Part shown: in pieces, positions 1 to 34,680 of the stretch
Layout: each line of letters opens with the position of its first letter
Numbering within the stretch: the stretch's first letter is position 1
Program-made: the position numbers and the translations under genes
Source of the DNA: an uncultured Deferribacteres bacterium
Lineage (GTDB): Bacteria; Zhuqueibacterota; Zhuqueibacteria; Zhuqueibacterales; Geothermadaptataceae
DNA length: 39,134 bases
Direction of reading: 5' to 3'
Assembly (NCBI GenBank): GCA_964014485.1
Contig: CAXHAT010000062.1
Span: forward strand, 1-39,134
Notes under the pieces: model-generated
The model's database searches: none
Told to the model about the DNA's origin: nothing
Seen by the model: the letters and a program-made list of their open reading frames with translations, nothing else

Positions 1-109
1 CCCCATCTGTTCATTCAGCCGTCATCATTTATGACTCGCTCACGATCCCCGCAACGAAGATTTGGAGGTGGGCCACCTCGCAATCCCCATCTGTTCATTC
101 AGCTGTCAG
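1..109 (-). CRISPR. Start of CRISPR array A, running off the left window edge; repeat about CTGACAGCTGAATGAACAGATGGGGATTGCGAG (33 nt)
   Basis: 1-24 repeats 85-108 with one mismatch. The full copy at 77-109 ends in GGGGATTGCGAG, as does array B. The 52-nt intervening segment holds a degenerate handle (39-52). Only about 1.7 repeats are visible. Confidence 0.7.
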
Positions 110-371
110 GGCGGGGATCGTAAACCTTTTCCCCACAACGACTTACGACCAGGTTTTCGAGCGGTCGGCCTGTCTTACTTACGGAACGCTCTTTTTTCAC
201 TCGCAATCCCGTCACACCCAGAACTTCATCGCGACCGCTCGCAATCCCCACGTATCGGTAACAGCCGTTTTTTCGGCAAACGGGTTGTTCTTCGGCGCTC
301 CACAGCGCCAACGCCCGCTTGCGACTTAGTTTTACCGGCTCCCCGCATACTTTGCAATCTATGTACGGCAT
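99..371 (-). CDS. Small putative Zn-binding protein (CxxC...CxxxxC); C-terminal half overlaps the CRISPR leader
   Basis: AGGAG RBS before ATG at 371; MPYIDCKVCG...PVCRKNGC. Confidence 0.4.
   Translation of the reverse strand: MPYIDCKVCGEPVKLSRKRALALWSAEEQPVCRKNGCYRYVGIASGRDEVLGVTGLRVKKERSVSKTGRPLENLVVSRCGEKVYDPRPDS
110..245 (-). promoter_or_regulatory. CRISPR leader-like sequence for array A
   Basis: Inverted repeat CGACCGCTCG (232-241) / CGAGCGGTCG (158-167), then an IHF-site-like CGTAAGTCGTTGTGGGGAAAAGGTTTACG (minus strand) next to the first repeat. This resembles type I-C/I-G-style leaders. Confidence 0.6.
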
Positions 372-436: not shown

Positions 437-697
437 TCATTCCACGATTCCTAATGCTTTCCTAATTTCACGCTGCGCATCCTTGTAACCCATGGCGTAC
501 ATCTCCGACGCCATCAGCGACACAGCTTCTTCCGGCGTGCGGACAGTCATGTCAATCACGACCCCCGACAGTTTGTGATAAATTTCGCACGGGCTTTCAT
601 CGTTCTCATTGTCCACAAAACCGAACTGTCCGATCAAGTCTAATACCTCCGCTTTCTTTTCAAGCAATTCGTCATATTCTGTTTTTATTTTTTTCAT
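437..697 (-). CDS. Hypothetical protein (86 aa) directly downstream of the dCas12f-like gene
   Basis: Starts 2 nt after the upstream stop; typical small phage ORF. Confidence 0.7.
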   Translation of the reverse strand: MKKIKTEYDELLEKKAEVLDLIGQFGFVDNENDESPCEIYHKLSGVVIDMTVRTPEEAVSLMASEMYAMGYKDAQREIRKALGIVE

Positions 698-699
698 TT

Positions 700-1923
700 T
701 TAACCTGCAATCTTTACTTTCGGCGGCGGCTCAATGCCCCAAACCTCGCGCCACTCGGATAGTTTGATGCCCACTTTAGAAAACACGATATGGTTGCACT
801 CAAGCTTCCATTTCAGATGACTCTCAAGCCGCGTCCAATCGAACGGTGCTCCCTTCGCTGACAGCCAACACGCATCACGGACGGGTGTGGTGGGCGAACG
901 ATATATCACCTTGCCGCAGTTGTTTTTGACGCACGATCTTATCACGTCCGCCACCATCATCTTCACAAATCGATCCTCCATGTCTTGCACTGCGCGGGAG
1001 TCGGGACGCAACGCGCGGTAAAACTGCTTTTTCCCCCTCCCCTTCGCCGCCGCGCCGTCTCGGTAGCGATACCGCGTCGCTTTGCGGCGAATCTCCAAAC
1101 GGCGGAAACCCTCCGCCAAGGGCAATCCGTCGCCCATCCACCAGCGCCATCGTTTGTCTTCCGCGCCGGGAAAAAAGAACGCAAACGGTCTGCGACCGTC
1201 CGGCGACGCCGGTACAATCTCCGCCACTCGCTCCGCATCCAGATTGTGGTCCTTCGTCGGGACGGGGTAGCTAAGCTGAAAAAACCACTTGCCTTTTTTG
1301 AAAACGAAAGAACTATCGCCCGCCTTATATTCCTTGCGGACTATCTTCTTTAAAATCTCTCTCTCGCCGTGCGACATCTGCCTCACTTCGAGCCGGCACA
1401 AGCCACGCATCTCTTTGCGTCCTGCCTGCTGAGAATAGATCGGGAAGCTCAGCACCGCTGAATCTTCGCCCATCCACAAATTACGCTGCGTCGCTTTTGC
1501 ATTACTGGCCAAACCGTCGTAGTAAATGCAAAAATCCTGACACGGCGCTGGCAGAAATATCGATCGGTGCGACGGTAACGAAAACTCGTTGGAAAGTATC
1601 GCCTTCCAGCGGTACTTTTCGCCGCGATGATTCCACGGCGTCTTGCCCCGCAGCCACTTCTCCACGCCGCGCTTGCATGCGCTGACGATCTTCGAGTTGA
1701 GCCGCGGGGCGGCGTCGCGTCCAGAGTTATAGATCGGTATTCCCCACGGTTTCTCCGCGAACTTGTCCGTGTCTTCGTCTTCGTGAAAACGTTGCCAGCG
1801 ACGCGCTACGGCGTTGCGGGCCACGTTGGCCATATCCGCCGCCTCTTGCAGGTCGGCGTGCAGGCGAGCGGTCGTTGTGTTGAGCGCAGCGCCGAGTTTA
1901 ATTTGTAGCGTACCTTGCGGCAT
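700..1923 (-). CDS. cas12f: Cas12f1/TnpB-family RNA-guided protein, predicted nuclease-dead and C-terminally truncated (407 aa)
   Basis: Colinear motif matches to AsCas12f1 as recalled: RLNSKIVS~RLNSGNLS; ILSNEFSLPSHR~ILRGDMSIPSYK; KKGKWFFQLSY~KNKWYLNISY; KGRGKK~GGHGRD; NCGKVIY~GCGTIQM; LESHLKWK~LQQKIIYK. RuvC-I D position is V237 (VAEIVPA) and RuvC-II E position is R342 (VIYRSP). No CxxC Zn finger or NAD/RuvC-III motif. Confidence 0.85.
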   Translation of the reverse strand: MPQGTLQIKLGAALNTTTARLHADLQEAADMANVARNAVARRWQRFHEDEDTDKFAEKPWGIPIYNSGRDAAPRLNSKIVSACKRGVEKWLRGKTPWNHRGEKYRWKAILSNEFSLPSHRSIFLPAPCQDFCIYYDGLASNAKATQRNLWMGEDSAVLSFPIYSQQAGRKEMRGLCRLEVRQMSHGEREILKKIVRKEYKAGDSSFVFKKGKWFFQLSYPVPTKDHNLDAERVAEIVPASPDGRRPFAFFFPGAEDKRWRWWMGDGLPLAEGFRRLEIRRKATRYRYRDGAAAKGRGKKQFYRALRPDSRAVQDMEDRFVKMMVADVIRSCVKNNCGKVIYRSPTTPVRDACWLSAKGAPFDWTRLESHLKWKLECNHIVFSKVGIKLSEWREVWGIEPPPKVKIAG

Positions 1924-1978
1924 ATTATCCCCCCCCGTGTTAAAGCAATGTTGCGGTCTTCTCGCCCTCGCATCCCCG

Positions 1979-2497
1979 TTAGGCCATCTGTCTCTCTACC
2001 AATTTTTCTAGTTCTGCTAGTCTTCCGCGAAGCTCCGCGTTCTCGATCTCCAGGTCGTTGATGCGCTGGATCAGCGTCTTTCGATCGGAGATGGCCGTTG
2101 TAGCTTCGTCGAGTTCCTTCTTTAGCTTCTCTGCCTCTTTCTTCCATGATGTGCGGTGTCCTTGGAGTGTTTCCTTGGACTCTTCCGCGCGGCTGTCTTC
2201 CCACTCCGCGTGCATCGCGGAAAGGTTGTAGTTCCGCTCGATCCACTGATTCTCGCTTGGGAAATGCCGATAAATATCCAGCAGCGTTCCGAGCGTCAGC
2301 AGGCCGGAGATAGCGGAGAAATACTCGCTCTCGATAGCGGCTTCGGCTGCGTCCAAATTTCCGCCGTGGACTTGAGCGATCCAATCGGTATCGCTCAGAA
2401 TCTCCGCCGCCAGCTTGACGCTGCGGTAGATGTTGCGTCGTAGATTGCGCGAAACTTCTTTGAGTTCTGCGATTTTTTGCGTTGTGGTTTTTGGCAC
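1979..2497 (-). CDS. Hypothetical protein with C-terminal coiled coil (172 aa)
   Basis: Heptad-rich C-terminus (LKKELDEA...LEIENAELRGRLAELEKL); tightly packed operon upstream of cas12f. Confidence 0.7.
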   Translation of the reverse strand: MPKTTTQKIAELKEVSRNLRRNIYRSVKLAAEILSDTDWIAQVHGGNLDAAEAAIESEYFSAISGLLTLGTLLDIYRHFPSENQWIERNYNLSAMHAEWEDSRAEESKETLQGHRTSWKKEAEKLKKELDEATTAISDRKTLIQRINDLEIENAELRGRLAELEKLVERQMA

Positions 2498-5219: not shown

Positions 5220-6039
5220 TCAAGGGAATTCTCGCACTTGTATTTCACGCGGGAACTCGTTTATGTCGCCGCCTTTTTTGTCTTTAATTTTTCCACCAAC
5301 AACATTTGCGCCCAACTGCTTCACGAACACCGGCACTTTCGCCGATCGGCATTCTTCGACAATCGAGTGCGCCCACCGCACATCAAACGGGCGGGCGTTT
5401 CGGCCGCTCTCTCCACCGACAATTACCCAATCCACGGGCGGCGGGTCAGAAAAGTTAAGCGTAATTGGGCTAACCTGCGGTTCGATCGAGAGGAAAAGTT
5501 TTCTTACGAAAGGACGCAGTGCAGCAAGCCGAGGAAGCCACTCGTTAAATGTGTCTTGGTCTGAAACCGACGACCCGAGCCAAACGTTAGGGCGTCGGTT
5601 TACGCCATAACGTTCTTTTCGTATTTTTGTAACAGTCTGATGCGCTGTTGCATCTATTTTCGGCATTGGCCAAAACCGCCGCACGTTTTCCGGGCGCTTC
5701 GTTAATATCAGCCAGGCCAGCATGTAGCAATCGTCGATCAGATCAAACAGGTCTTTCCGCCACGGGATTAGCTCGTCGCGATCCTCGAAAATGTCGGCCA
5801 GCGATGCGCAAAATACGCGACGAATCTCGTTGCTTTCCCACGCCTCTTGGTTCCACTTGTGCGGCTCGCCCCACGTCTTCGTGCGGCGTCGCGTACCGTT
5901 ATCGCCCCACTCGACTGAATGGAACCGCTTGTCCATCAGTTCTTCGGCATAACAATTTTTGCAGCCCGTATGCACCTTAGTGCAACCGATCCACGGATTG
6001 AAACGTATGGTCAGTCCATTCGATTTTACTATTTCTCAT
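5220..6039 (-). pseudogene. Gp37/Gp68-family (DUF5131) radical-SAM-like protein with a 1-nt frameshift near codon 13
   Basis: MRNSKIEWTDHTF lies in one frame and NPWIGCTKVHTGCKNCYAE in another, due to an extra T at ~6001-6003. Also has VFCASLAD, LTKRP, SIEP and VGGESG motifs. Confidence 0.85.
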
Positions 6040-7914: not shown

Positions 7915-8009
7915 TTTCAAATCTCCAAAAAGTAAAGTGTAAGCCCCTGAAACGAAACAGAGCGGCGAGCCGGAGTCGAACCGGCGTGGACCAATCGCCG
8001 CTGCGCCGC

Positions 8010-8138
8010 CTACAGCAATGAAATTGCCAGGGCGGCGAACGCCACGCAGCTGCCGCATCCCTTCCAATCCCGGTCGCGGGCAGCGGACACGAAGCCTACG
8101 GAAGCGCTAACAAGCAAAAAAATGGCCAAAGTAAACAT
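8010..8138 (-). CDS. Small hydrophobic protein (42 aa), not in the ORF track
   Basis: TTTGGAGGATTG RBS; MFTLAIFLLVSASVGFVSAARDRDWKGCGSCVAFAALAISLL. Confidence 0.65.
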   Translation of the reverse strand: MFTLAIFLLVSASVGFVSAARDRDWKGCGSCVAFAALAISLL

Positions 8139-8232
8139 AACAATCCTCCAAAGTTAAAACCGAACAAACCTACAAACTGAAAAAGCGGCGCGCCGGAGTC
8201 GAACCGGCGTGATACCGTCGCCGCTGCGCCCG

Positions 8233-8448
8233 CTATCTTTCATAAAGCGGCACAATGTAGCCAAACTCAGGGCCCTGGCAATAGTACAGCGCGTACTCAC
8301 CGTCCTCGCTGCGATATAGTGCGGGCTCGTCATCGTGCGACGCGTGGCCGGGCTCCGCAACCAGCCGATAGTGAGTGTGGTTGGTCCAGATGTTTCGGCC
8401 GCATGGGGTGGCTGCGATGACTTTGAGCGTTTCTTTTTTTGTAATCAT
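8233..8448 (-). CDS. Hypothetical protein, first gene after sigma-54 promoter 1
   Basis: AAGGA RBS; MITKKETLK start. Confidence 0.65.
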   Translation of the reverse strand: MITKKETLKVIAATPCGRNIWTNHTHYRLVAEPGHASHDDEPALYRSEDGEYALYYCQGPEFGYIVPLYER

Positions 8449-8492
8449 AATTCGTTTCCTTGTGGTGTGGCGTGTTGACACGTGGCTATAGT

Positions 8493-8610
8493 TGCACGTC
8501 GTGTGCCAATCCGCAGAAAACCTTTGTTTTTGTTAGGTTTTCGGCGAATTGCTCTGTGGGTAGCTGTCTATAGATGGGACAGAAATCCCATTTAATTCCC
8601 ATTTTGGGAC
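8493..8610 (-). promoter_or_regulatory. Sigma-54 (-24/-12) promoter with upstream enhancer-like sites, copy 1
   Basis: TTGGCACACGACGTGCA (GG-N10-GC) at 8493-8509; upstream AT tract and GTCCCA motifs. Confidence 0.7.
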
Positions 8611-10015: not shown

Positions 10016-10114
10016 TCGGGTCAATTGTCACCGCTGACTCCTCACGGGTGGGCCTTACTCCGCCCACAGGAAAAAGCGAGTGGCGGGAGTCGAACCCGCC
10101 AAAGCCGCGTCTCG

Positions 10115-10339: not shown

Positions 10340-10654
10340 GGGAACCTCCAAAAAGTAAAAGTGAAACTGTTGTTAAAAGCCGCTGCGGGAATCGAACCCG
10401 CGTTACCAGGGCGGCTTGTGTGTTGTCGTCGTCGTTTTCTCATCGCCGGGCGATCGTGTCGCAAAAACCAGCGGCCCTTACCGTTGCCGGCGGGCGTGAG
10501 AGGGCAGGCGAGCGAACCGAAGGACTCTCAACTACGCGTGAGAAGCGCCGCAGAGTGCGGGATTGTAATCTTCGGCCACCAATTTAATGGTGTGCATCGG
10601 CCAGCCGTTCGAATTTTAAAAGAGCAAGTTGTCGTGTTGACGATTGACTATAGA

Positions 10655-10782
10655 TGCACGTCGTGTGCCAATTCGCAGAAAACCCGCAAACCTTTGTTTT
10701 TATTGGGTTTGCGGCGAATCGCTCTGTGGTTAGTTGTCTACAAATGGGACGAAAATCGCAAAATGGGACCCATTATGGGACA
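10655..10782 (-). promoter_or_regulatory. Sigma-54 promoter with upstream enhancer-like sites, copy 2
   Basis: TTGGCACACGACGTGCA at 10655-10671; region ~10634-10760 is a diverged duplicate of ~8473-8590; repeated GTCCCA motifs. Confidence 0.7.
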
Positions 10783-13255: not shown

Positions 13256-15542
13256 TTGGCATTTTAATAATCAACAAAGTAAAATCGTTTATCAAAGCAC
13301 TGCTTGAAGTATTTACCCATGCGCCTTGAAACCTCACTCGAAAATTCTGGTAGCCTTCATTCGGCCCCATAAAAAGGCAATATGCCACTCCGGGAACCGT
13401 GCTGGTCCTAGAAAATCCAGCTGGCGAACTCGGTAAAGAACCACCGCTCATTATTTCGCGTTGATAGTAGCTTTCCGTTGACTGCCCTACTGCGGCAAAC
13501 CCGCCTCCACCAGCTTCAACTTCCATCCATACGTGAAACGAATCTCTTGCGCCCTGTGAAGTGTCAATTGCACCCGGATTGATATTAGACCACCAAATAA
13601 AGCTATAAACACCATCTTCGTTGATAGAATATTCGTCGTCACCCTCGTCAGTCACCAAGTCGCTGGTACAACCAGCGATTGTCCCTGTAATATCTAGCGT
13701 CTGCGCATATATTTCAAAATGTTGATTAGAAGCATTCTGGTGCAAAATGTCAAACTTTATGCCCGGCATACATCTCTCGATAATCCTCCATTTTTGATCT
13801 TCCGGGAACCAGCCGATAAATACCTCTTCCGGCGTGCTGGCGCTGGCGTCAACCGCGATGTCGCAATCCGCCCACGAATTATGAACAGTCACCGTCGGGC
13901 CGCTCGGTTGGATCACACCGTCGCCACTTCCACCCGCTGATATTTCCGTTGATATTTGCGCTCGATAAATCTTGGTGGCCTCATGCACAATATAACTTGG
14001 CCGCGTGTCGCCGCTGTGCGTCTCGTAGCCATACAGACGACCCTGATAATACTCCTTACTCGGCAAAGCTGTGCTGCCGCCCATGCCTGGATAAAAAGAG
14101 TTGTACCGTATCCAGCAGTCGTCTTGAGTCTGTACCGTTCCCGCAGTCTTGCGGATCGCCACACGGCCTGGTATCAACCCGCTAGCGTTCTCCGCTACCG
14201 CCTCTAGGCTGTCGGTGGACCCATCCCACACTTGCACCATCTGATCGGTGCGAGGCCATGTTGGTCGAATGGCGTCGCTGATCGCCGCCGGCGTCAATAT
14301 CTCGCCGCGTGTAATCAGCCCGCTCCCTTTGGTGGGTTTGTCCGCCGGAGAACGCATGCGATGCCGCGGGCTGACTTCCACCTCAGTCACAAGCCCTCCC
14401 TGATGGCCCTGATCGCCGTGATTGCGCCATCGAACCAACGACACCTCGGTATCAGGCAATATCGTGGTGACAACACCGCTGTAGCGTTTCTTTTTGCGCC
14501 CGTTGCCGGCCTCGAGCGCGTCAACGTACTCCGCTGCCACTTCCGTCGCCCTGGTAGTCAGCGCCCCTGAATTCGACGGCGTAGAACTTGTTTCGCTGGT
14601 AATTGTGGCCGTTAAATCGTCCCACAAACACACGTTGGTGTTCGCCAATGCGCCGGTTGATCCAGTGTTGACAGTCACCGAGTGGATCGCATTAAGCTCC
14701 CACTCGTTGCCCGCTCCGCGGACAGTATCACGCTCCGTCCCGTATTGACCCGCCTTGCGAAACAGCACCGTAATTTGCTTGGGCAAATTCGCCGCGCCGG
14801 CCACCTTGGGGTCGTAATCGTAAATCAGCCTCTTTTTGACGGCGTTCATCCGCGCTGCCAAGTCCGCCTCCGGCGCCGACACTACCACGGTAAAAGTGTC
14901 GGTCAAGGGCTGATACTTGACCTTGCAGCCGATCTTGTCCAGCAGTTCTTCGATCGCCCGCCAGGCCGACACACCAACAAAGCGAAAATTTTCCGGCGTA
15001 CCGTCGGGCGCATAGGGTAGCGATGGAGCCGCCCCCATGCTCCCCAAGTGCGTATCCCACAAATCCTGAAACAGTGTTTCCCACGTCCAGATTGTCGGGC
15101 CGGAATCAAGAGAATCGACGTAGTACAACCCCGCGCCGCTGGTCGTCGACGGGGCGGGCATGCGTACGTTGTACTGTGCGTTGACGTGCGACATCTCTGC
15201 GATGCGGCGTTTGTCCGCCAACTCCACCAAATACGCCGCTTTTTTGTCGCTGTCAAAAATTAGAGTGACGGCGTGCGCCCGCACAATATAGAGTGCTTGA
15301 ATTTCCGCCGACGTTTTCCCGTCGTCGAATTTCATCTTGTGCGAGGCGTCAATATCTAATTTGTCCAATTCCTCGCGCGTGATCAGCGCCCAGCCCTCGC
15401 CGGCATCGCTGCCGATGGGACACTCGTAGCTATTGGCCTTGCCCATCCAGTCTCGCGGCGTCCCCCACTCGGATGAGTAAGACACCAGGCCGGAGGGATC
15501 AAGTAGCTTTTTGCCGCCGAGCGTGATGAGGGACTTGGGCAT
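13248..15542 (-). CDS. Putative tail/baseplate structural protein (764 aa)
   Basis: Size, G/S/T-rich beta-type composition and position in the virion module; no recognisable motif. Confidence 0.45.
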   Translation of the reverse strand: MPKSLITLGGKKLLDPSGLVSYSSEWGTPRDWMGKANSYECPIGSDAGEGWALITREELDKLDIDASHKMKFDDGKTSAEIQALYIVRAHAVTLIFDSDKKAAYLVELADKRRIAEMSHVNAQYNVRMPAPSTTSGAGLYYVDSLDSGPTIWTWETLFQDLWDTHLGSMGAAPSLPYAPDGTPENFRFVGVSAWRAIEELLDKIGCKVKYQPLTDTFTVVVSAPEADLAARMNAVKKRLIYDYDPKVAGAANLPKQITVLFRKAGQYGTERDTVRGAGNEWELNAIHSVTVNTGSTGALANTNVCLWDDLTATITSETSSTPSNSGALTTRATEVAAEYVDALEAGNGRKKKRYSGVVTTILPDTEVSLVRWRNHGDQGHQGGLVTEVEVSPRHRMRSPADKPTKGSGLITRGEILTPAAISDAIRPTWPRTDQMVQVWDGSTDSLEAVAENASGLIPGRVAIRKTAGTVQTQDDCWIRYNSFYPGMGGSTALPSKEYYQGRLYGYETHSGDTRPSYIVHEATKIYRAQISTEISAGGSGDGVIQPSGPTVTVHNSWADCDIAVDASASTPEEVFIGWFPEDQKWRIIERCMPGIKFDILHQNASNQHFEIYAQTLDITGTIAGCTSDLVTDEGDDEYSINEDGVYSFIWWSNINPGAIDTSQGARDSFHVWMEVEAGGGGFAAVGQSTESYYQREIMSGGSLPSSPAGFSRTSTVPGVAYCLFMGPNEGYQNFRVRFQGAWVNTSSSALINDFTLLIIKMPNV

Positions 15543-17569
15543 TATTCGTAATCAGAGAGAAAGATTACCTCGTCAGGCTGAATATGGAATTTGTTGTAGC
15601 CTTTTTTCTTCGCCTCCTCATACTCTCGCTCCATCTCTTCGTCGCTCTTCTTTTTCGCCTTATTTCTTTGAAGCCCGAGAATCGTAGCTTTTTGTTTCCC
15701 AAGTTCTTCGGGGGGAATTTCCACCATTTTTACCACCTGTATTTTATCGCCCCAGGCTGTTGTTTCGACTTGACTATATACCGGTCGATATTGAGTCAAA
15801 TGAGATTGCAGTAATTCCATTTCTTCGGGATAACTGCTGTGTTCCGCTAAATAATACCCCGTACTGGCCACAATATCAAATCGTACGCCGCTTGGTTCAC
15901 CGGGTTTTCTGTTGAGATCATGCTGGAAATTACTCGCATGCGCAGAACTGAACGACGTAGAACCCATGCCGCGCAAAGAAATTGCACCACCTTCCGCAAT
16001 CGCCTTGTCAATCCCCGCCGCCAATGTGGAAGAAAAAAGACTATAAGGCACACCGCGATACACCGTTTTCGGTGTGTCTAGTTTCTGCTTGGTGAGATGC
16101 TGCAAGTTTTTGAAGTGTGATGTTTGCTCGCTGTCAAGACATGTAAGCGTCTCCGGGCAATGTCTTAAACGAGCGTTGAAATCTTCGTGGAAGTAAGTGC
16201 TATATCTTTTTATCGATTGACTTGGATTGTGATTCCCTTTTTTGTTTCCCGGAAAATCTGGTGGATTCTTCTTTTGCCAAAACTGCATTCTCTTATCGAT
16301 TAATTTTACATCATCGTACGAACGCAACTCTTTAGGGAACTGAGAAAGCAACTCCTCGTTGGTCTTCGCGAAAATTCCGGTCTTATTTTCCTTGGCCGCC
16401 TTGGCCGCTGCGGCTTGCTCGCCGACCGGCGTGAAGCCAAACATTTCTCCTACCTTGCTTATAAAACTAGAGGTAGGCGTAGGAGTAGGAGTAGGATGCG
16501 CAGGAGAACTTTTGCCGCCAGTATTCTTTTCAAGCGACTCTTTAAAAACGTCTTCAATGTGGTTTTTGATGTTTATTATAGTAAATTTCTTTCCATGAAT
16601 ACTGATCTTCACCCCAAGTTTTTCGGCTACAGAGTCTACGACGCCCTCGGTTTCCAAAAGCAAATTCATCTCTGCTTGATCTTTAAAAAACTGCAATGTC
16701 TTGTCGTAACCGACATCACCAGCGTTTTCTTTAATTTTGTTTATTAACGTTTTAAATTTTTCATGATGTTCGTTTAATTTCTCTGGTGTTTCCTTTGCCG
16801 CATCGTGGGAGTTTTTGGCAAGATTGTATGATTCAATCAAATGCTTTGAAAGAATTTCGATATTATCATATTTAGTGGTGGCCTGCTTCATGCCAAGCGA
16901 CTTAACAACCTCTTTCAAATGCGCCGCTTTTTGGTTTTTAAGTTCAGACTTCGCCGCTAATAAATTCATTGACATCCCTTGGCCATTTAGACCAAGCTTG
17001 TTTAATTTGTCTTTGTATTCATCAAACAGTTTGATCGCATCCTTAGCATCCTCCTTCAGCTTGGCCGCTTTTTCCTTGGCCGCCGCTTCTTTTTCGGCTT
17101 TCTTCTTCGCCTTTTCTTCGGCTTGCTGTTTTTTGAGTTTTTCTTTTTCCAATTGGTCGGCGGATTTTTTCTTTACTGTTTTTTTCTTTACTGTTTTTTT
17201 CTTCGCGGTTTTTTTCTTCACCGCCTTTTTCACCGCTTTCTTCGCCTTGACGGCCTTTTTGGCAGTTTTCGCCTTCTTCGCCGTTCCCACGGCAGTCTTC
17301 TTCTTAGGCGCGGCCTTCTTCTTTTCTACCTTGACGAGCGTTCCCTCTTCGAGCGCCTGCGCACCCACAAACGCGCCTCCTTTGTATGTCTTGCCTTGGT
17401 ACGTTAACGTGTGTCCAGCCGGAACACGCGCAGCCGCTAACCGCTCGATACGCAACGACAAGAGACGAATCATTACCTTTTTGCCGGCGCGAGTCGATAC
17501 ATCGATCTTCGGCGCAGAAATGCCGAGACGCTGGAAACAGTTGAGTGAGAGGCGGTTAATCGTCTTCAT
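15542..17569 (-). CDS. Head-associated protein with a Lys-rich histone-like tract and C-terminal VIP2/C3-type (R-S-E) ADP-ribosyltransferase
   Basis: FNARLR, TVYRGV, GSTS and EEMELL motifs; KKAVKKKTAKKKTVKKK tract; overlaps the muF stop. Confidence 0.85.
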   Translation of the reverse strand: MKTINRLSLNCFQRLGISAPKIDVSTRAGKKVMIRLLSLRIERLAAARVPAGHTLTYQGKTYKGGAFVGAQALEEGTLVKVEKKKAAPKKKTAVGTAKKAKTAKKAVKAKKAVKKAVKKKTAKKKTVKKKTVKKKSADQLEKEKLKKQQAEEKAKKKAEKEAAAKEKAAKLKEDAKDAIKLFDEYKDKLNKLGLNGQGMSMNLLAAKSELKNQKAAHLKEVVKSLGMKQATTKYDNIEILSKHLIESYNLAKNSHDAAKETPEKLNEHHEKFKTLINKIKENAGDVGYDKTLQFFKDQAEMNLLLETEGVVDSVAEKLGVKISIHGKKFTIINIKNHIEDVFKESLEKNTGGKSSPAHPTPTPTPTSSFISKVGEMFGFTPVGEQAAAAKAAKENKTGIFAKTNEELLSQFPKELRSYDDVKLIDKRMQFWQKKNPPDFPGNKKGNHNPSQSIKRYSTYFHEDFNARLRHCPETLTCLDSEQTSHFKNLQHLTKQKLDTPKTVYRGVPYSLFSSTLAAGIDKAIAEGGAISLRGMGSTSFSSAHASNFQHDLNRKPGEPSGVRFDIVASTGYYLAEHSSYPEEMELLQSHLTQYRPVYSQVETTAWGDKIQVVKMVEIPPEELGKQKATILGLQRNKAKKKSDEEMEREYEEAKKKGYNKFHIQPDEVIFLSDYE

Positions 17570-18600: not shown

Positions 18601-18771
18601 CTATTTGGTTTTTTCTTTGCTTGATTCTTCTTCCTTACGCATGTCCAGGTCAACATATCGGCAAGATCCTTTTTCAACGCCAAATCTCTCTAGCCTTTTC
18701 GGGCGCTGCTCAATATGTTCTTCGATTTCTTTTTTGAATTTATTAACATGCTCTGATTTTTCGTTATTCAT
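18601..18771 (-). CDS. Small charged protein downstream of the second ART (possible immunity or partner protein)
   Basis: Start overlaps the ART stop. Confidence 0.5.
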   Translation of the reverse strand: MNNEKSEHVNKFKKEIEEHIEQRPKRLERFGVEKGSCRYVDLDMRKEEESSKEKTK

Positions 18772-19768
18772 TTGTTTCAATTTCATCAAGTTGATATACT
18801 ACCATGTTTTTACCAAGCGTCTTACGAGTTTTTTTCCCAACTACACGGTAATGCGTTCCATGCCTCTGCATAAGCTCCGTCTCCGGCTTGAATTGGGAAT
18901 ATGGCGCAACATAATGACCTGTTTTCGCACGGACTTCAAACATTGTTCCCTTACCCCATCCCGCATAAGAAATTGCCACATGTGGAGTTGTTGTTGTTGA
19001 GCGCATTCCGTCAAATGTCACCGCACCGTCATTTTTCAACGCTTTTTCAACATTTTCTATAATTGATGGGTCAGTTGTTTCTCGCAAACCAAAGTATACC
19101 GTTTCCGGCTCTGGAAGCTTCTGGGAGGCAAGTTTTTGGAGTTCGTCAAGTTTCCATTTATTGTGCTCGTCTACGCAATCAAGTGTTTCAGGGCATTCTC
19201 TTAATCTCCGATTGAGACGAGAATAGCTTGGAGAAGTATAGAACTTTATGGCTTGTAATTCTTTTTCGTTCAGCGGTCCCTGAGTTTTCTGCCATTTCGA
19301 CAAAGAAAAATACTTAAAAACTGAAGAGACTAACGAACGAAAGGATTTGGGGAATTCTCGCGCCGACTCCTCTTGGGATTTTGAAAACGCGCCCTGCTTG
19401 TTTTTCTTCAAAGATAAAATTTTGTCAACCGTTCTATTTTCTTTTCCTTTCGCCTTTTTGTCCTCATCACCTCCTGACAACTTTGCTTTTTCTTTCGGGG
19501 TGGCGCCATCCATCACTTCTTTGGGAATAAACTCACCGCCCTTGAAATTTTTTCCACCAATACTTACGCCACCCTTAGGGGCATGCACCGCTCCCATACG
19601 TCTTACTCGCAGCGCCAACAGTGTAATTGAAATTTTGCGCCCAGGACTCGATGACACATCAATGCATGCAGGCTGGATGACGTGCAGACGTTGGAAACAT
19701 GCCGCCGATAGCCGCGAAATATGCAATTTTTTTGCATCTCTCATCGACAACCTTTTTATTTTTTTCAT
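18764..19768 (-). CDS. Second ADP-ribosyltransferase-fold protein (paralog), with the conserved Arg position replaced by Phe
   Basis: YTSPSYSRLNRRLRECPETLDC, TVYFGL, RSTT, PETELMQ; N-terminus homologous to 15542-17569. Confidence 0.8.
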   Translation of the reverse strand: MKKIKRLSMRDAKKLHISRLSAACFQRLHVIQPACIDVSSSPGRKISITLLALRVRRMGAVHAPKGGVSIGGKNFKGGEFIPKEVMDGATPKEKAKLSGGDEDKKAKGKENRTVDKILSLKKNKQGAFSKSQEESAREFPKSFRSLVSSVFKYFSLSKWQKTQGPLNEKELQAIKFYTSPSYSRLNRRLRECPETLDCVDEHNKWKLDELQKLASQKLPEPETVYFGLRETTDPSIIENVEKALKNDGAVTFDGMRSTTTTPHVAISYAGWGKGTMFEVRAKTGHYVAPYSQFKPETELMQRHGTHYRVVGKKTRKTLGKNMVVYQLDEIETNE

Positions 19769-20034: not shown

Positions 20035-23000
20035 CTAAAACACTGCTGTGGAAGTGTGTTTGCTCCATATCCTCCCGAAACCCTTCGATCCGAATCGCAC
20101 CTTATCGACTCGCTCCCAAAACGCATCGATCTCTTTTTTTGTAAGCAACTCCCCCTGCTCACCTTGCGTTAATTCGGCAGTAATTTTTTCCTTATTCTCC
20201 GCCAAATTATCAAGCGCTGCCACGGTCTCGCGAGATAAATTCTCATTTTCTCCAATCAAATCATGTGCAAATGTGCGAATCTTGGGATAATACTGACCGC
20301 GGCCGTCTTTGCGTGGCTTTGGCTCTTTTGCTCCATTTAAAGTATATCCCCCAGGTTCTCCAAATGAAAGGCCATTGTCAATTAGCGCAATCTCCAATCC
20401 GCCCCCTTCTTTGGGACGCGCCATAATATTAGCGGAATGCCGATCCTTATTACCTGTTATCAGATCGAATACAGCCAATCTCTCTCGCGTGCGTTTCCCT
20501 GCCGATTCAACCAATCCCTTGTACGAAAACCTTGGGTCGCCGCCTGACATCTCTTGCAAATCTGAAAAAGTATTTCCGCCGCCAAAAAATTCCTGGACGC
20601 TTCCAAGGCCCTTGTGTCCTTCGCTGAGCACCGTTTCCGGGACAAGCCCAAAGCCAAGCGCCTTGTCGATAATCGACGCCGCCGCCTCACGCTTATACTG
20701 CTGATCATGCGGAAAGCCTGATCTCAGGATGTTCATGTTTTCTCCGATCTTCGGCTTGTAGACCCCCTGAGAACCGTTTTCTAACTTGACCATATACGCG
20801 CTGTTTGTCCCCTTTTGAGCGCCGATCGGACCATGCGATACGATTTTCGATCGCACCCCTTTGCCAGTGGTTTTCGCCGCAGCAATTCTTTCCTTTCGCT
20901 TGCCGCCTAATTTAGAAAAAGCAGAAAACACGGCGTTTATCACGCCTGCATTTTTTCCTGTTTTCTCGCCTTCATCCTCCATCAGCGCATCGGTCGATTG
21001 CGAAGCGCCCGCCTGCGATTGTTTCTTTTGAGTCGGTTCGTCCCCCGTCTCTGCATGCTGCTGAGCGGCTACCTGATCCACTTCCGTTTGACTCTTGCCC
21101 GGAATAAACTGCCCGCCAGGGTAGAATTTGCCGTCGATGTTCACGCCGCCCTTCGGGGCTTGAGCAAGTTTTTTGCGATTTGTGCTCAACTTTTCCCACA
21201 CCGCGTCTAAAATCGCATCATCTTCTTCGCTCAAAAAGATTTCTTCGCCAGCTCCGCCTGACTTTTGCTTAGTGCTTAGCGCCATTTTCTGTTTCCGATT
21301 CTTTTTTTCCTCTTGGTAAGCCGACAGCACCCTCCGCGACAAACTCCCCTCGCTTAAATCAAATGTAGCCAAAAATGAGTCGCCGTTTTCTTTCCACCAT
21401 TCCCGACCCTCTTTCGATTTCATCAAGTCCGAAATGCGATTCGCCGAAGAAAGCGACTTCGGCAATTTGCTTTTTAGTTTGGGGTTAATTTCTCCGTCGT
21501 ATCCCAAGCGAGGCCAAACGTAATAACCAAACATTTTGTTGTCTGGGTCGTCTTCTCGCGCCGCCCAGCATTCTATCCTTTTGAATCCCGACTCAATCAT
21601 TTTTTCCACTTGCGCAGAAAAAACTTGCATCCCTAACCCGCCGCCTTGATGTTGGGGGGGGATTTCAAACGACTCGTTGTAAATCCAGTCTTCATAAACC
21701 TGACGATTGAATTTAGCTTCGCTTTCATCGTCAAATTCAATTGTGCCCTGCGCATAAATGTGATCGCCGTAAGAACTTAACAGCACATGGGCATCGTCCG
21801 GCGCACCCACAACATCAGCAAACTTTTCATCTGGGAAATCTGCACCAAAAAGATTGGCCTTGGTTCGTTGGTATGCCTCTTTTTGGTCTTTTGTAAAATC
21901 CTTGACTTTAACCGTGGCTTTCGAGCGGCGTGAAGAATGAATTTCAGCCTGACCACCACTCGGCTTATTAGTGTTACTTTCGTTTTCATCCAAATGCCAT
22001 CGACCGCCCCGCAGCACTTCCCGATGACCCGCACGATTGACACGAGTATCCCCCTCTCTAGCCAATCGCTGCGCCGACAACCTTGCCGCAATCTTTCGCC
22101 GCGTCCGCTGCACAATCTTTTCCGCACCGTCCTGCGCCACCTTGCTCCGCAACGACATCTGCATAGCGCCCGGATCGGCGCCCGGAGGCGGAGCCTGCTC
22201 ACCTCCAGGCGGTTGCTCGCCGCCTTGATGCCGCTCCATCGCTTGCTCACCGAGCGGCTGGAATGGACAATTAAAATCGATCGCCTTGCCAAAATTGTAA
22301 TATACCGCCGGCTCCGCCACCTGCGTTTCGAAGTCGTCCACAATCCGAGACAACCACAAATCCAGACCCGTAAAGTAGGCATCCATCGGGACTTGTTTGC
22401 CCTGCCAAGCGCCGGTCGCCTGGCTCATTAGCACGTCGTCAGGTATCTCCAGCCCGCGCAAAATCTCCACATCGCAGTCTTTAGGATACTGCAAGATATG
22501 CGCCGGATTAGCTGACACCTGCGCCGGAGTCCAATCCCACATCTCTCGACCGCCCTCGTCATACACCCTCGGCAGCGCCACCACGTTACCGGCCATCGCC
22601 TGCTCAATCATCTCCCGCATAATGTCGCGATTCGGCACTTCCCCCTTGCCGTCAATATTCGTGGTGCCCGGAGGATACGCGCCGCGCACGCCCGTGTACG
22701 AGTCCTTGCGCATGAACAAACGCCGCACATCCAATGCACCGCCGTCTAGCCACTTGTCCGCCCACGGAGAATAAGCGCCATGACAAATAGATTGACCATA
22801 GTACGAATCGCTCTCCGGCTGATAAGAATGCCAGAACGCTTTAGGCTTTCTCAAATCAACATGACTCTCTCCTGCCACACGTTTGAACCGCACTCCCGCC
22901 AACCGTCCACGCGACTCGAGCGCAATTACGTCCCTTGCATGACGCTCCAACAAATCGTCAAAGAGAATTTTGTCGCCCTGTTGCTTCCAGATTATTTCGC

Positions 23001-23364
23001 CCGCCATCCACCCCCACGTTTGCGCCTTAATCACCTTCGGCAACGCTTTTTTCCAAAATTGCTTTCTCAGGTCATCAACAAACTTCGCAACTTCCTCGCT
23101 GGGACTTTCCGCGCCGTCCACCCACTGCCCGTCTTGATCGCGACCAAACTTCGCGCCTACAATTGCCGCGGCGCGCATGGCCAGACCCAGCTTAACCGTT
23201 TGGTCCATCAACATAGCCTCGATGGTCGCAAACGTAAAATAGGGCAGGTCGCGGGGCTGTCGAAACAGACGAACGGGCAGAGGCCGGTAACCCTCGGTCG
23301 CCGGATGTTTGTCTGTTGTAAATAACGCCTTGACGGCGTTTTTAACGCGCCCCATAAGTGGCAT
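20035..23364 (-). CDS. Portal protein (Mu gp29/DUF935-like) fused to GNAT acetyltransferase and PI3/4-kinase/HipA-like kinase domains (1109 aa)
   Basis: N-terminal ~400 aa are portal-like (MLMDQTVKLGLAMR, GWMAGEIIW, YYGQSI, PAVYYNFG). GNAT motif A QHQGGGLG and GYYVWPRLGY. Kinase motifs GVYKP, REAAA, VPET, NKDRHSAN, IDNGLSF. Confidence 0.8.
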   Translation of the reverse strand: MPLMGRVKNAVKALFTTDKHPATEGYRPLPVRLFRQPRDLPYFTFATIEAMLMDQTVKLGLAMRAAAIVGAKFGRDQDGQWVDGAESPSEEVAKFVDDLRKQFWKKALPKVIKAQTWGWMAGEIIWKQQGDKILFDDLLERHARDVIALESRGRLAGVRFKRVAGESHVDLRKPKAFWHSYQPESDSYYGQSICHGAYSPWADKWLDGGALDVRRLFMRKDSYTGVRGAYPPGTTNIDGKGEVPNRDIMREMIEQAMAGNVVALPRVYDEGGREMWDWTPAQVSANPAHILQYPKDCDVEILRGLEIPDDVLMSQATGAWQGKQVPMDAYFTGLDLWLSRIVDDFETQVAEPAVYYNFGKAIDFNCPFQPLGEQAMERHQGGEQPPGGEQAPPPGADPGAMQMSLRSKVAQDGAEKIVQRTRRKIAARLSAQRLAREGDTRVNRAGHREVLRGGRWHLDENESNTNKPSGGQAEIHSSRRSKATVKVKDFTKDQKEAYQRTKANLFGADFPDEKFADVVGAPDDAHVLLSSYGDHIYAQGTIEFDDESEAKFNRQVYEDWIYNESFEIPPQHQGGGLGMQVFSAQVEKMIESGFKRIECWAAREDDPDNKMFGYYVWPRLGYDGEINPKLKSKLPKSLSSANRISDLMKSKEGREWWKENGDSFLATFDLSEGSLSRRVLSAYQEEKKNRKQKMALSTKQKSGGAGEEIFLSEEDDAILDAVWEKLSTNRKKLAQAPKGGVNIDGKFYPGGQFIPGKSQTEVDQVAAQQHAETGDEPTQKKQSQAGASQSTDALMEDEGEKTGKNAGVINAVFSAFSKLGGKRKERIAAAKTTGKGVRSKIVSHGPIGAQKGTNSAYMVKLENGSQGVYKPKIGENMNILRSGFPHDQQYKREAAASIIDKALGFGLVPETVLSEGHKGLGSVQEFFGGGNTFSDLQEMSGGDPRFSYKGLVESAGKRTRERLAVFDLITGNKDRHSANIMARPKEGGGLEIALIDNGLSFGEPGGYTLNGAKEPKPRKDGRGQYYPKIRTFAHDLIGENENLSRETVAALDNLAENKEKITAELTQGEQGELLTKKEIDAFWERVDKVRFGSKGFGRIWSKHTSTAVF

Positions 23365-32374: not shown

Positions 32375-33211
32375 CTACTCTGTCGCCGTCGCCACCGTCA
32401 GATAATCGTCGGTGCTAAACGGAACCTTATCGATACGCACCAACCACTTGAGGGTTGTCGCAAAGTATATGCATTCAAAAGTCAATCTCGCACCAATTTG
32501 CTCGCTTGCAGTCGTGTAAGTTACGCTGTCAGCGCTTAAATCGTTTCCGATGATAATATCATCGCCAGCCGCGCTGGAAACTTTTAATTCCTGATCCGCC
32601 GCCATCACAAACTGATACTTGAGTCCCGGATGGATCGTGGGCAACGTGTATTCGGTGTCCGCGCCGCTCGACACAAAAATTGTGCCGTTGTCAGCTTCGA
32701 CCACTGTATAATCCGCAGTCTTGTTCGCAAATCGTTCGTTGCCAGCCTTCCAGCCCATCGGGTCATCGTCAAACACAAACCCGGCACTCCACATCATGCG
32801 CCGCGCCAAAAACTCATCGACGTGTGTTGTAAAAGCAGTGCCTTGAATAAGCAATTCATTCACGCGCACCGGTCCGCGGAGCAAAACACGCCAAGCGCGG
32901 TCCGCGTTGTTGGCGTTGAAATCCTGCATGCGAAGCTCTTCGGCCAAAATGCCGTAAATCTTCTCACTGCCATCGCTCGCGTCGGCATCCCACTCTTCCA
33001 GTTCGCTGCCGGAAGTGAGTTGTCCTAGCAAAAGACCGGGGCGCAAAACCGTAGTGGGCGAATTGCCCGCATCACGCGCAGCGCCGGAAATGATCGCCGA
33101 GCCAAACAATGCCTGCCCCTTGGCGCGGTCATCGACCCAAAGGATTTCCTTCTCGGTGGTCTGTTCAAGCGAGCCGAAACCGGGCGCGCTGGGTCCGCCT
33201 AAAAATGTCAT
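32375..33211 (-). CDS. Head decoration protein with C-terminal extension
   Basis: TVLRPGLLLGQLT...DASDGSEKIYGIL resembles the lambda gpD-like pattern. Confidence 0.7.
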   Translation of the reverse strand: MTFLGGPSAPGFGSLEQTTEKEILWVDDRAKGQALFGSAIISGAARDAGNSPTTVLRPGLLLGQLTSGSELEEWDADASDGSEKIYGILAEELRMQDFNANNADRAWRVLLRGPVRVNELLIQGTAFTTHVDEFLARRMMWSAGFVFDDDPMGWKAGNERFANKTADYTVVEADNGTIFVSSGADTEYTLPTIHPGLKYQFVMAADQELKVSSAAGDDIIIGNDLSADSVTYTTASEQIGARLTFECIYFATTLKWLVRIDKVPFSTDDYLTVATATE

Positions 33212-33227: not shown

Positions 33228-34538
33228 CTATACTTTGGTGGTCTCAGATGAAAACATGCGATTCTTTTTGAAGACATCATCAATTACTTTTTGCGCGTCT
33301 TCGTCGCTGATATCGTCGAACTTCCCGCTGACGTGCGGAGGTTGATCTTTCGCCGTGATCGTCGGGCTTGCCATACGCAAATGCTGCTGCAAATCCACCA
33401 CGCTGTTTTCCGGGATTGCTTCGCGGCTTTCGATCCACTTTTCCGGGTCGGTCTTTCCAACAGTGCCGTTGGCCTTCACCGATAATCTCTGAACTTTAAT
33501 GAGCGACATCTGCCGCTTCATCTCGGACGGCGTGCATCGGCCTGTTTGCGATAAATGTTCAAGACGCTCCATCAGCGACAAGCGATGACGGCCAGTGAAC
33601 ATTTTCTCTTGAGCGACCATTTGTTGTTTCATGCCCTTTAGCTGCTTGTCATATCGCTGAGACAACGCGGCAAATTCAGGCGGAACTGCGTTCATTTCTT
33701 CGGTCCCTTCTTCTGGAACATCCTCGGTCATATCTTCCTCTTCGTACTCATCCATCTCTTCCTCGTTGGCGTTGAGCGCGTTAATAACCGCGGTCATGAG
33801 GAGTACAAATCCTTCGTCGCTCATCGGGTCGAAATCAACCGGGATCTCCGCGCCGACGCGGCTCATGACTTCTTCCGCTAAAGTCTTGTACTGCCCGCCG
33901 TCGTCCTCACCCGGCCCGTCGTTGTCGGACTCAACAGACTCGTCGGTGAAGTCTTCTTCGCCTTCCATTTCGTCTTCGTTGTCGTAATCCATTTCGTCGT
34001 CATCGCCCATGCGGTACACTTTCGGTTTTCCCATATCCAATCCCATTCGTATGGCGCATGCGATCGCGCCGGATTCAACAGGCTCAAAAGGGCTTTGCGA
34101 ATCATCAACGGGATGATTCACGAAATCTACGTGTGTGATCGTATCTTTGTAGTTTCTACCTCGGCCGTCCTGCCACTCCGAAAAAATGACCGGCGAAACA
34201 TAAACGCTATTCGACTCCGCCTTGGCCGCGGCTGCGGGATCGTGAATATCCATCAGAATTTCGGCCTGACCATTCTTCACCGAAAAATTTTCCAGCTTTC
34301 CGACCGTGTTGGATGCCGACCTCTTCTTAAAATCGTTGATCGAGAGCGGGACGGCGTTGGTTGGGTCGTCGTCATGGTCCCAGTCGATCGGCACAATCTG
34401 GTTATTGCGTCGCAACCGATTGAACTGCTTTTCCCAATGCTTGAGCCTCTGCGGCGTAACGTCCACTACGCCGTCGGGCGAGACATATCGTCCCGGTTTG
34501 AGAATCGCCTTGCGAAATTTTTTAGATGAAGCAACCAT
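33228..34538 (-). CDS. Prohead protease/scaffold (Mu gpI-like)
   Basis: PIDWDH, YVSPVI, THVDFVNHP; acidic scaffold-like C-terminal half. Confidence 0.8.
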   Translation of the reverse strand: MVASSKKFRKAILKPGRYVSPDGVVDVTPQRLKHWEKQFNRLRRNNQIVPIDWDHDDDPTNAVPLSINDFKKRSASNTVGKLENFSVKNGQAEILMDIHDPAAAAKAESNSVYVSPVIFSEWQDGRGRNYKDTITHVDFVNHPVDDSQSPFEPVESGAIACAIRMGLDMGKPKVYRMGDDDEMDYDNEDEMEGEEDFTDESVESDNDGPGEDDGGQYKTLAEEVMSRVGAEIPVDFDPMSDEGFVLLMTAVINALNANEEEMDEYEEEDMTEDVPEEGTEEMNAVPPEFAALSQRYDKQLKGMKQQMVAQEKMFTGRHRLSLMERLEHLSQTGRCTPSEMKRQMSLIKVQRLSVKANGTVGKTDPEKWIESREAIPENSVVDLQQHLRMASPTITAKDQPPHVSGKFDDISDEDAQKVIDDVFKKNRMFSSETTKV

Positions 34539-34652: not shown

Positions 34653-34680
34653 AAAAAAAACGCCCCGTGAAAGGGGCGTT
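34653..34680 (-). terminator. Rho-independent terminator closing array B
   Basis: AACGCCCC-TTTCAC-GGGGCGTT followed by a T-run on the minus strand. Confidence 0.85.

Follow-up and report, generated by a model that had tools for sequence, protein, structure and literature searches.

How might a single small CRISPR effector make use of two repeat arrays that agree only in the last few bases of their repeats? The question is raised by contig CAXHAT010000062.1 (C62) of an uncultured Deferribacteres bacterium (GCA_964014485.1), in which an array-like left end (array A) adjoins a gene for a Cas12f-like protein and a second array (array B) lies 34 kb away. The window, by which we mean the whole stretch of DNA analyzed (forward positions 1 to 39,134), is the entire contig, one part of a metagenome-assembled genome of 8.4 Mb. 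Nearly all of its genes are on the minus strand, and its ORFs included matches to a large terminase subunit, a Mu-type portal, a Mu F-like head protein, a head-tail adaptor, a head decoration protein, a Mu gp36-like head gene, an SNF2 helicase, and a glycosyltransferase. Judged by this terminase, portal, and head gene content, C62 is a piece of a phage or prophage. A 55-nt overlap links its right end to contig C222, and no contig of the assembly joins its left end. Across the window, no tRNA was found by ARAGORN and no Rfam family matched at the gathering score; none of the 30 window ORFs scanned matched a Cas family.

The two arrays do share a 3′ handle, as an initial annotation of this DNA had claimed: the final 13 nt of the repeat in array A (77 to 89; hereafter, the tag) are identical to the 3′ end of seven hairpin repeats in array B (34709 to 35103), and the repeat bodies differ. 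The 12-nt core of the tag occurred exactly in 10 window copies (77 to 88, 238 to 249, and eight between 34709 and 35147). With up to 2 mismatches allowed, 19 window copies were counted versus 4.62 ± 2.02 in shuffled sequence, and none of 100 shuffles reached 19. The whole assembly held 13 exact copies of the core, 10 of them in C62, and not one of the reversed control pattern. Because the copy counts exceed those of the shuffles and are concentrated in C62, the common tag is real and far beyond chance.

Array B (34709 to 35147, minus strand) contains eight exact copies of the tag. Seven of these are preceded by a G+C-rich hairpin of 6 to 7 bp in place of the 5′ part typical of the family, and the most upstream copy (35136 to 35147) is tag-only. 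Start-to-start spacing is irregular (48 to 68 nt), and three of the seven intervals leave only about 15 to 20 nt of guide. The array begins 8 nt past the stop codon of the gene at 35156 to 35800 (minus strand), which bears out the earlier remark that no leader-like region precedes it, and it is closed by an intrinsic terminator (34659 to 34680, minus strand) with an 8-bp stem, including 6 G-C pairs, followed by a T run. Neither of two nearby genes had a family match: the one adjoining array B (33228 to 34538, minus strand) was considered as a second effector and rejected, its sequence being acidic and scaffold-like, and the 410-residue protein encoded at 35802 to 37034 (minus strand) is repetitive, of low complexity, and structural looking.

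The left end of the contig is a real array start that is far thinner than the word “array” implies, consisting of one whole repeat and one cut repeat within positions 1 to 112. The complete repeat (77 to 112, minus strand) is 36 nt long in the register of the family, of which 33 nt (77 to 109) had been annotated initially, and the second (1 to 28, minus strand) is cut by the contig end, with 28 of 36 nt present. The interval between them (29 to 76, minus strand; 48 nt) is atypical compared to the 35 to 39 nt usual in relatives; it is made up of a 26-nt stretch (51 to 76), a tag-only copy with 2 mismatches (39 to 50), and then 10 nt. Further copies lie beyond the first repeat, all on the minus strand. 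Two are diverged but full length: one at 238 to 273, with an exact tag at 238 to 249, and one at 421 to 456, with a tag carrying 1 mismatch at 421 to 432 and an overlap with the stop of an 86-residue ORF. A 26-nt interval (212 to 237) separates the first of these from a tag-only copy with 1 mismatch (200 to 211), and a 20-nt interval separates the second from a shortened tag copy (391 to 400) that ends 19 nt before the start of a small ORF. The proposed second array at the left end thus stands in the form of a whole repeat and a cut copy, and not as a clean array, given the diverged and tag-only copies around them.

A search of the assembly for further copies of the array A repeat recovered its 21-nt core at just two places in the 8.4 Mb, both in C62 (1 to 21 and 85 to 105, with one mismatch between them), and nowhere else in the assembly. 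The full 34-nt repeat string occurred once in the assembly, and the repeat core had no exact match in IMG/VR. Public sequencing runs (three, from one study) yielded low-depth contig pieces that covered parts of 242 to 1200 and nothing of 1 to 241. The array A repeat does align, in its middle part and 3′ end, with repeats of L019 and L016 and with those of the downstream array of L020, all of them viral contigs that carry relatives of the effector; it is therefore family typical and, as far as such alignments go, is homologous to the repeats of the effector’s viral relatives.

So thin an array might be a decaying remnant, that is, a local duplication with degraded copies left by a module now defunct in this phage. 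The presence of only one whole and one cut repeat would fit such decay, as would the degraded state of the two full-length and three tag-only copies around them. Against it, two loci separated by 34 kb carry 10 exact copies of the 12-nt core, and the contig breaks within a repeat, which is a common break point for assemblers in arrays. The neighboring genes bear on this alternative as well.

The effector gene (700 to 1923, minus strand; 407 residues) was assigned from an AlphaFold2 model, a profile, and an alignment. The protein had no match in Pfam or PHROG, and its sequence alone retrieved Cas12f chains from the PDB weakly (E = 1e-4). The best PDB matches of its model (pLDDT 74) in Foldseek were Cas12f chains (AsCas12f, E = 2.5e-16), with the natural dCas12f structures 9n9c (E = 2.1e-13) and 9n9m among the top matches. 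ISDra2 TnpB (8exa; E = 5e-6) ranked below Cas12f, as did other TnpB and Cas12 types, and Cas12m (8hhm) was a weak match (E = 2.3e-5). When the family profile was compared with PDB sequences, OsCas12f was recovered at 1.6e-17 and the dCas12f structures at 4.2e-12. In an alignment of 40 family sequences, the RuvC-I aspartate was absent from all members, and all 40 proteins ended before the zinc finger and RuvC-III. The RuvC-II glutamate was kept in at least 90% of family members and is a serine in the window’s protein. Taken together, the predicted structure and the alignments indicate that the effector has a Cas12f fold with a broken, truncated RuvC and that it belongs to a nuclease-dead family. 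Loss of a glutamate that most relatives keep would suit a remnant; the intactness of the effector ORF, which is 39 to 46% identical to its relatives over its whole length, argues the other way.

An exhaustive profile search placed 584 cluster representatives in the effector family at E ≤ 1e-3 and 156 at E ≤ 1e-30. Within the assembly, the only match to the family profile was the gene at 700 to 1923. No member was found in 166 other genomes of the phylum or, in two scans, in reference genome contigs, and a three-sequence effector alignment retrieved no relative from viral contigs. Among GenBank phages, the effector had only a borderline, TnpB-like match (27% identity over 48% of the query, E = 1e-3). 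A protein identical to the effector is recorded on 3 contigs, of which the longest measures 52,338 nt. The DNA of relatives that we compared comprised one metagenome contig (L015) and six IMG/VR viral contigs in four lineages (L016 to L018, L019, L020, and L021).

Upstream of the effector gene lies a partner gene of 172 residues (1979 to 2497, minus strand), recognized by BLASTP against the upstream ORFs of L016 (E = 8e-25, 39% identity) and L015 (E = 1e-32, 34% identity). On its other side, a small ORF of 90 residues (99 to 371, minus strand), with an N-terminal four-cysteine zinc-ribbon motif, is conserved by the effector gene in five lineages; its relatives are 29 to 40% identical to the window’s copy, and in all five lineages its frame is open to a stop inside the first repeat. 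A predicted complex of the effector with this zinc-ribbon protein scored 0.00 versus a mark of 0.32, the fold of the smaller partner being itself uncertain. The gene order is conserved: the 172-residue partner, the effector, the zinc-ribbon small ORF, a conserved element, and the array. The window adds to it, between the effector gene and the small ORF, the 86-residue ORF (437 to 697, minus strand), which had no family match; in the relatives whose gene order was checked (L015 and L016), no such ORF was seen at this place. Such an insertion is what one might expect of a module in decay, whereas the retained synteny of partner gene, small ORF, and conserved element is not, and we regard a nonfunctional remnant as quite unlikely.

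Arrays adjoined the effector gene in all the relatives that were fetched; the window had them too, as did each of the six lineages examined. Many are far longer than array A: 15 repeats of 36 nt with 14 spacers in L016; more than 40 repeats with 43 spacers in the L019 record (G168), in arrays flanking the gene on either side and at other places; and 19 repeats with 18 spacers in L021. In L015, 4 repeats lie downstream and 3 degraded ones lie upstream. Repeat spacing in the relatives is mostly 72 to 75 nt, with a minority of short units (10 of the 43 spacers in the L019 record are ≤32 nt). L020 carries six repeats upstream and two downstream of the gene; the two sets differ in body and share about 19 nt at the 3′ end. 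Because this independent relative has the arrangement too, we take two repeat bodies with one 3′ end to be a trait of the family, as compared across these sequences, and not an accident of C62.

The region between the effector gene and array A had been read initially as a canonical leader with inverted repeats and an IHF-like site. Short inverted repeats are indeed present. The rest of that description did not hold, since the region is instead composed of degraded repeats, tag-only copies, the small ORF, and the conserved element, and the IHF consensus had no match in positions 1 to 500 and two in the whole window (11972 and 13715) versus 2.19 expected. No sigma-70-type promoter was found in positions 1 to 2100.

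The conserved element (113 to 215, minus strand) lies directly upstream of the first good repeat, and the small ORF reads through it. A stretch that lies about 60 nt upstream of the first repeat is conserved in all five aligned lineages. Within the element, a 7-nt stretch (155 to 161) is complementary to the tag, and RNAalifold paired the two, with neighboring positions pairing with the start of the repeat; the pairing of tag and 7-nt stretch holds in 3 to 5 of the five lineages, depending on the position. In the predicted structure of the element, 77.8% of cells were paired versus 66.3% in shuffles (none of 500 reached 77.8%) and 11 pairs had changed on both sides (1 of 500 shuffles), statistics that are modest, coming from five sequences with the structure predicted from the same alignment as the pair counts. 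When the partners were slid, 31 to 50% of cells were paired. No compensatory change was seen in the helix between tag and 7-nt stretch across the five lineages, and a mismatch interrupts this helix in the window. A reading by eye of the more distant L021 shows part of the conserved stretch retained there, next to repeats that end in a different tag; stretch and tag therefore do not appear to change together. As the element sits inside an ORF that is open in all five lineages, part of its conservation may therefore be protein coding. From its conservation and predicted folding, 113 to 215 is probably a structured scaffold or leader RNA.

The initial annotation had further proposed that one effector and one tracrRNA serve both repeat types. 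Duplex scans of five loci returned no outlier of the kind expected of a classical anti-repeat, the best z values (about −3.2 to −4.0) falling in inconsistent places. The 7 nt complementary to the tag are conserved, and the element could therefore act as a tracr-like anti-repeat, as far as the predicted pairing goes. Of the original proposal, the single effector, the common tag, the parallel in L020, and the tag-complementary element speak in favor, and the lack of a classical anti-repeat and of compensatory change in these sequences speaks against. One effector serving two repeat types remains plausible.

The tag is also found apart from arrays. Right behind the stop codon of the upstream gene, 43 nt before the effector start codon, is an 11-mer that resembles the tag and is one base shorter (1967 to 1977, minus strand), and a repeat or tag stands directly before the effector start in five of six lineages (the window, L015, L019, L020, and L021, and not L016). 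Elsewhere in the same assembly, an exact tag lies on contig C424, 36 nt ahead of a primase-polymerase gene. In the 61-kb record of L019, the 3′ 15 nt of the repeat occurred 77 times, 27 of them solitary, and 13 of these 27 lie 4 to 12 nt behind a −10-like hexamer, compared with 4.7% of random positions (binomial p = 6e-11). Since solitary copies in L019 sit behind such hexamers, the short 3′ end seems to work without the rest of the repeat, precisely the property that a pair of arrays with unlike repeat bodies would require. Strong matches of the L019 array elsewhere in its own record, which might have been taken for protospacers, were rejected as such when they proved to be solitary repeats and further arrays.

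These solitary copies suggest a different role, in which the tag's main function, on ordinary phage transcripts, would be that of a docking or regulatory signal and not that of a handle on immunity-style guides. Arrays A and B would then be batteries of signals, or small regulatory RNAs, and the effector would feed back through the tagged 5′ ends of mRNAs. The tag-only copies ahead of the effector (by 43 nt) and of the small ORF (by 19 nt) are placed as this would predict, as are the exact copy 36 nt ahead of the primase-polymerase gene on C424 and the 13 of 27 solitary tags of L019 behind −10-like hexamers; irregular spacing in both arrays and window intervals that lack an external target also agree with it. 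A fixed self-regulatory circuit would have no need of the long, regular arrays of relatives, with their 14 to 43 different spacers, nor does it account for one spacer that has a perfect, distant match in its own phage. On balance, we consider it unlikely that the tag serves mainly in this way. This role and use of the tag on array guides are not mutually exclusive.

That match was the only one of its kind among the 90 spacers of five records compared with their own phage records: a spacer of the L016 phage matches over 38 of 38 nt inside a 193-residue ORF adjoining the portal gene, antisense to the ORF. The window intervals had only chance-level matches (12 to 20 nt) in the whole assembly, none of nine matched the phage contigs, and neither array region matched GenBank phages. 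As to whether array A is expanded by host Cas1-Cas2 in trans, as had been suggested, no support emerged. No Cas1 was found in the four related viral records; the assembly's single Cas1 lies on contig C60, beside 37-nt repeats of unrelated sequence; and 96 host spacers had only short partial matches to the phage contigs (the best being 13/13 and 16/17 nt, E about 0.02). With no phage Cas1, a host Cas1 beside unrelated repeats, and host spacers without a phage match, growth of array A driven by the host is unsupported, and there is no support for spacer gain by array A or B.

We favor, at a probability of roughly 0.6, a reading in which positions 1 to 253 are the effector-proximal start of a phage CRISPR module that descends from Cas12f (type V-F) systems, lacks adaptation genes, carries a noncutting effector, and serves tag-guided DNA binding. 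Both arrays would be transcribed on the minus strand, array B together with structural genes and up to its own terminator, and the transcripts would be processed to guides with the 13-nt tag retained at the 5′ end. Of the repeat, the effector complex would need the tag alone, which may pair with the 7-nt stretch of the element at 113 to 215, in cis in the case of the first repeat and in trans with all other repeats. A complex so loaded would bind matching DNA and block transcription without cutting, and the tag-only copies before the effector gene and the small ORF would let it act on its own operon. Weighing against this module-start reading are the irregularity of array A, the irregular spacing of array B, the window intervals and array regions that matched neither the assembly nor GenBank phages, the single spacer in 90 with a target in its own phage, and a tag pairing that lacks compensatory change.

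A broader and more speculative version, which we hold to be somewhat improbable, would make the tag a general docking signal, such that any tagged phage transcript, whether an array guide or a message of the effector, small ORF, or primase gene, is captured by the noncutting Cas12f through pairing with the element at 113 to 215. In that case, the 5′ ends of mRNAs would act as guides that lead the effector back to the very genes from which those mRNAs derive, and the phage would possess an RNA-guided circuit for its own transcription beside array guides aimed at other DNA.

On the favored reading of a module with a noncutting effector, the arrangement suggests that the 13-base tag is what the guide RNAs of the effector need. 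One effector beside two arrays that agree only in their last 13 to 19 bases (in the window and in L020), together with the solitary 3′ ends in L019, points to a very short tag sufficing for guide loading. Such a short loading tag would explain how these phages spread guides over their genomes and would be useful in a programmable DNA binder of 400 residues. It also raises the question of what phages silence with such systems, almost no target having been found. Natural nuclease-dead Cas12f proteins were shown only recently to steer transcription, and array-linked forms are mentioned, and not studied, in those portions of the literature that the search covered.

How does this module compare with systems already described? 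Type V-F Cas12f nucleases have an active RuvC, a zinc finger, and a separate tracrRNA with a long anti-repeat, usually along with cas1, cas2, and cas4. The window effector is like these nucleases (AsCas12f, OsCas12f, SpCas12f1, and Un1Cas12f1) in that they provide its best structure and sequence matches, are of similar size, and have repeats of 36 to 37 nt, but it lacks the RuvC-I and RuvC-II acidic residues, the zinc finger, and RuvC-III, and its locus lacks cas1, cas2, and cas4.

Among nuclease-dead relatives, TldR proteins are TnpB-like repressors, some of them phage encoded, that use one fixed omega-type guide and no arrays, so far as the available descriptions go. A phage-borne, nuclease-dead, RNA-guided DNA binder with a proposed role as a transcriptional repressor is common to both. 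TldR is, however, TnpB derived, whereas the window effector is far nearer to Cas12f (2.5e-16) than to TnpB (5e-6) and has arrays. Type V-M Cas12m (PMC11656645 and PMC10442227) is found on mobile elements and silences by binding, leaving double-stranded DNA uncut. Carriage on a mobile element and proposed silencing are features in common with the window module; Cas12m is larger, belongs to another Cas12 branch, and, in the structure 8hhm, is a weak match.

The closest parallels in proposed mode of action are those of Hoffmann et al. 2026 (PMC13472631), who describe a truncated, nuclease-dead Cas12f that acts with an ECF sigma factor. These dCas12f-sigmaE systems of Bacteroidota (structures 9n9c and 9n9m) are operonic with the sigma factor, use single chimeric guides, and mostly have no arrays. 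The window effector shares with them the truncated, nuclease-dead Cas12f, but it is accompanied by arrays and no sigma gene lies beside it: none of 30 window ORFs had a sigma domain, and one ORF with a sigma-70 region 4 was found on a separate contig, C365. The same source places a separate dCas12f cluster, drawn from bacterial genomes, beside CRISPR arrays and suggests that it may repress efflux genes, as exemplified by a guide in a Chitinophagaceae MAG that is directed at an efflux promoter. Going by that description, the window module is like this array-linked cluster in its Cas12f fold, in the loss of part of the RuvC site by truncation at the C terminus, in adjoining arrays, in a predicted structured RNA upstream of the array, and in proposed transcriptional repression. 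It is unlike it in being phage borne, in the two repeat bodies that share a tag, in the tag-only copies ahead of genes, and in the conserved small zinc-ribbon ORF.

The remaining comparison is with CasMu-V (Altae-Tran et al. 2023; PMC10910872), described as a small Cas12 that loss of RuvC-III has inactivated and that is associated with Mu transposases; its listed effector genes are about 375 to 385 codons long. A small type V effector without RuvC-III, near that size across its family, CRISPR arrays, and a mobile-element context with Mu-type genes (here the Mu F-like, Mu gp36-like, and Mu-type portal genes) recur in the window, and the module might accordingly be pictured as a CRISPR-associated transposon of this kind, with a dead Cas12 guiding Mu-type transposition of the phage. 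CasMu-V is, by its description, defined by MuA/MuB and transposon ends, none of which was found in the window or in the four related viral records. An rve-type transposase was likewise absent from C62, C222, and those four records, the genome of this phage being incomplete; the Mu transposase model PF02914 had no match, although control genomes were equally silent. The relative G167, which is 95% complete, encodes a tyrosine integrase together with a portal and a terminase of lambda type, and the gene behind the exact tag on C424 is a primase-polymerase. Guided transposition thus appears very unlikely.

In the titles, abstracts, and passages of the literature that were searched, we found no account of a phage-borne, array-linked dead Cas12f, of two repeat bodies with one tag, or of promoter-fused tags. 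By analogy with the systems compared here, the favored module, a noncutting effector with tag-bearing guides, most resembles the dCas12f of Hoffmann et al. in its proposed working and CasMu-V in its protein.

In all but one of six lineages, a copy of the repeat or of its tag (in the window, the 3'-terminal 13 nt common to the repeats of arrays A and B) lay 2-45 nt ahead of the start of the effector gene, which encodes a nuclease-dead Cas12f-like protein (407 residues in the window); the exception was the viral-contig locus L016. These copies were located at 1967-1977 (minus strand) in the window, at 1202-1237 in the metagenome contig locus L015, and at 5934-5975, 2598-2633, and about 560-586 in the viral-contig loci L019, L020, and L021, respectively. 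Their recurrence before the effector start hints that the gene regulates itself. An exact 12-nt tag core also occurred on a second contig of the same assembly (C424, locus L035) at positions 1552-1563, in the gap that separates a DHH-family gene from a primase-polymerase gene, 36 nt ahead of the start of the latter. Contig C365, which encodes a UvrD-type helicase and an ORF with sigma-70 region 4, carried one exact tag; both contigs may be additional pieces of the phage represented by the window.

Solitary repeat ends also occurred in the 61,344-nt viral record of L019 (G168). With up to 2 mismatches allowed, the final 15 nt (3' end) of the CRISPR repeat matched 77 times when both strands of the whole record were counted; 27 of the 77 copies were solitary. 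A -10-like hexamer was found 4-12 nt ahead of 13 of the 27 solitary copies, compared with 4.7% of random positions, and many of the solitary copies were followed by an ORF start.

Genes flanking the effector were also conserved. Upstream, a 172-residue protein (1979-2497, minus strand) kept the same position in L016 (E 8e-25) and L015 (E 1e-32); its sole family match was a weak one to phrog_383, a PHROG of unknown function. Downstream, the effector gene was followed in five lineages by a short ORF, 90-114 residues long, with a zinc-ribbon motif (window 99-371, minus strand; L015 2542-2880; L016 7281-7613; L019 7257-7577; L020 3880-4224), and in all five its frame remained open until a stop within the first CRISPR repeat. 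The conserved pre-array element (window 113-215, minus strand) may therefore be coding and RNA at once. L021 lacked the zinc-ribbon ORF, and there the effector's own frame continued to a stop within the first repeat.

One of the 14 spacers of L016 (8577-8614) was identical over 38 of 38 nt to that phage's own genome (G167 32950-32987, equivalent to 1451-1488 of locus L024). The matching site fell within a 193-residue ORF that adjoins the portal gene, and the match was antisense to that ORF; identity also reached into the flanking repeat sequence, by 3 nt at the 5' end and by 2 nt at the 3' end.

Several other features of the window were observed. T-arm-like motifs in several copies (7956-8235, 10070-10107, and 10384-10409) and two blocks, 55 and 73 nt long, each duplicated with 85-87% identity (8468-8590 versus 10630-10760), sat where long ORFs are few; ARAGORN found no tRNA in the window, and Rfam likewise gave no match. 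A 15-nt T-rich unit was repeated in 4-5 tandem copies on the plus strand (17162-17239), within the ORF of a 675-residue protein (15542-17569, minus strand). A 1109-residue protein (20035-23364, minus strand) had an N-terminal Mu-type portal domain and, around residues 961-1006, matched a PI3/PI4-kinase domain weakly and below the threshold. The gene for the Mu F-like head protein was immediately followed by an ORF with an ADP-ribosyltransferase domain (18764-19768, minus strand; Pfam ADPrib_exo_Tox, E 2.1e-9), whose predicted product may be a virion-carried enzyme.
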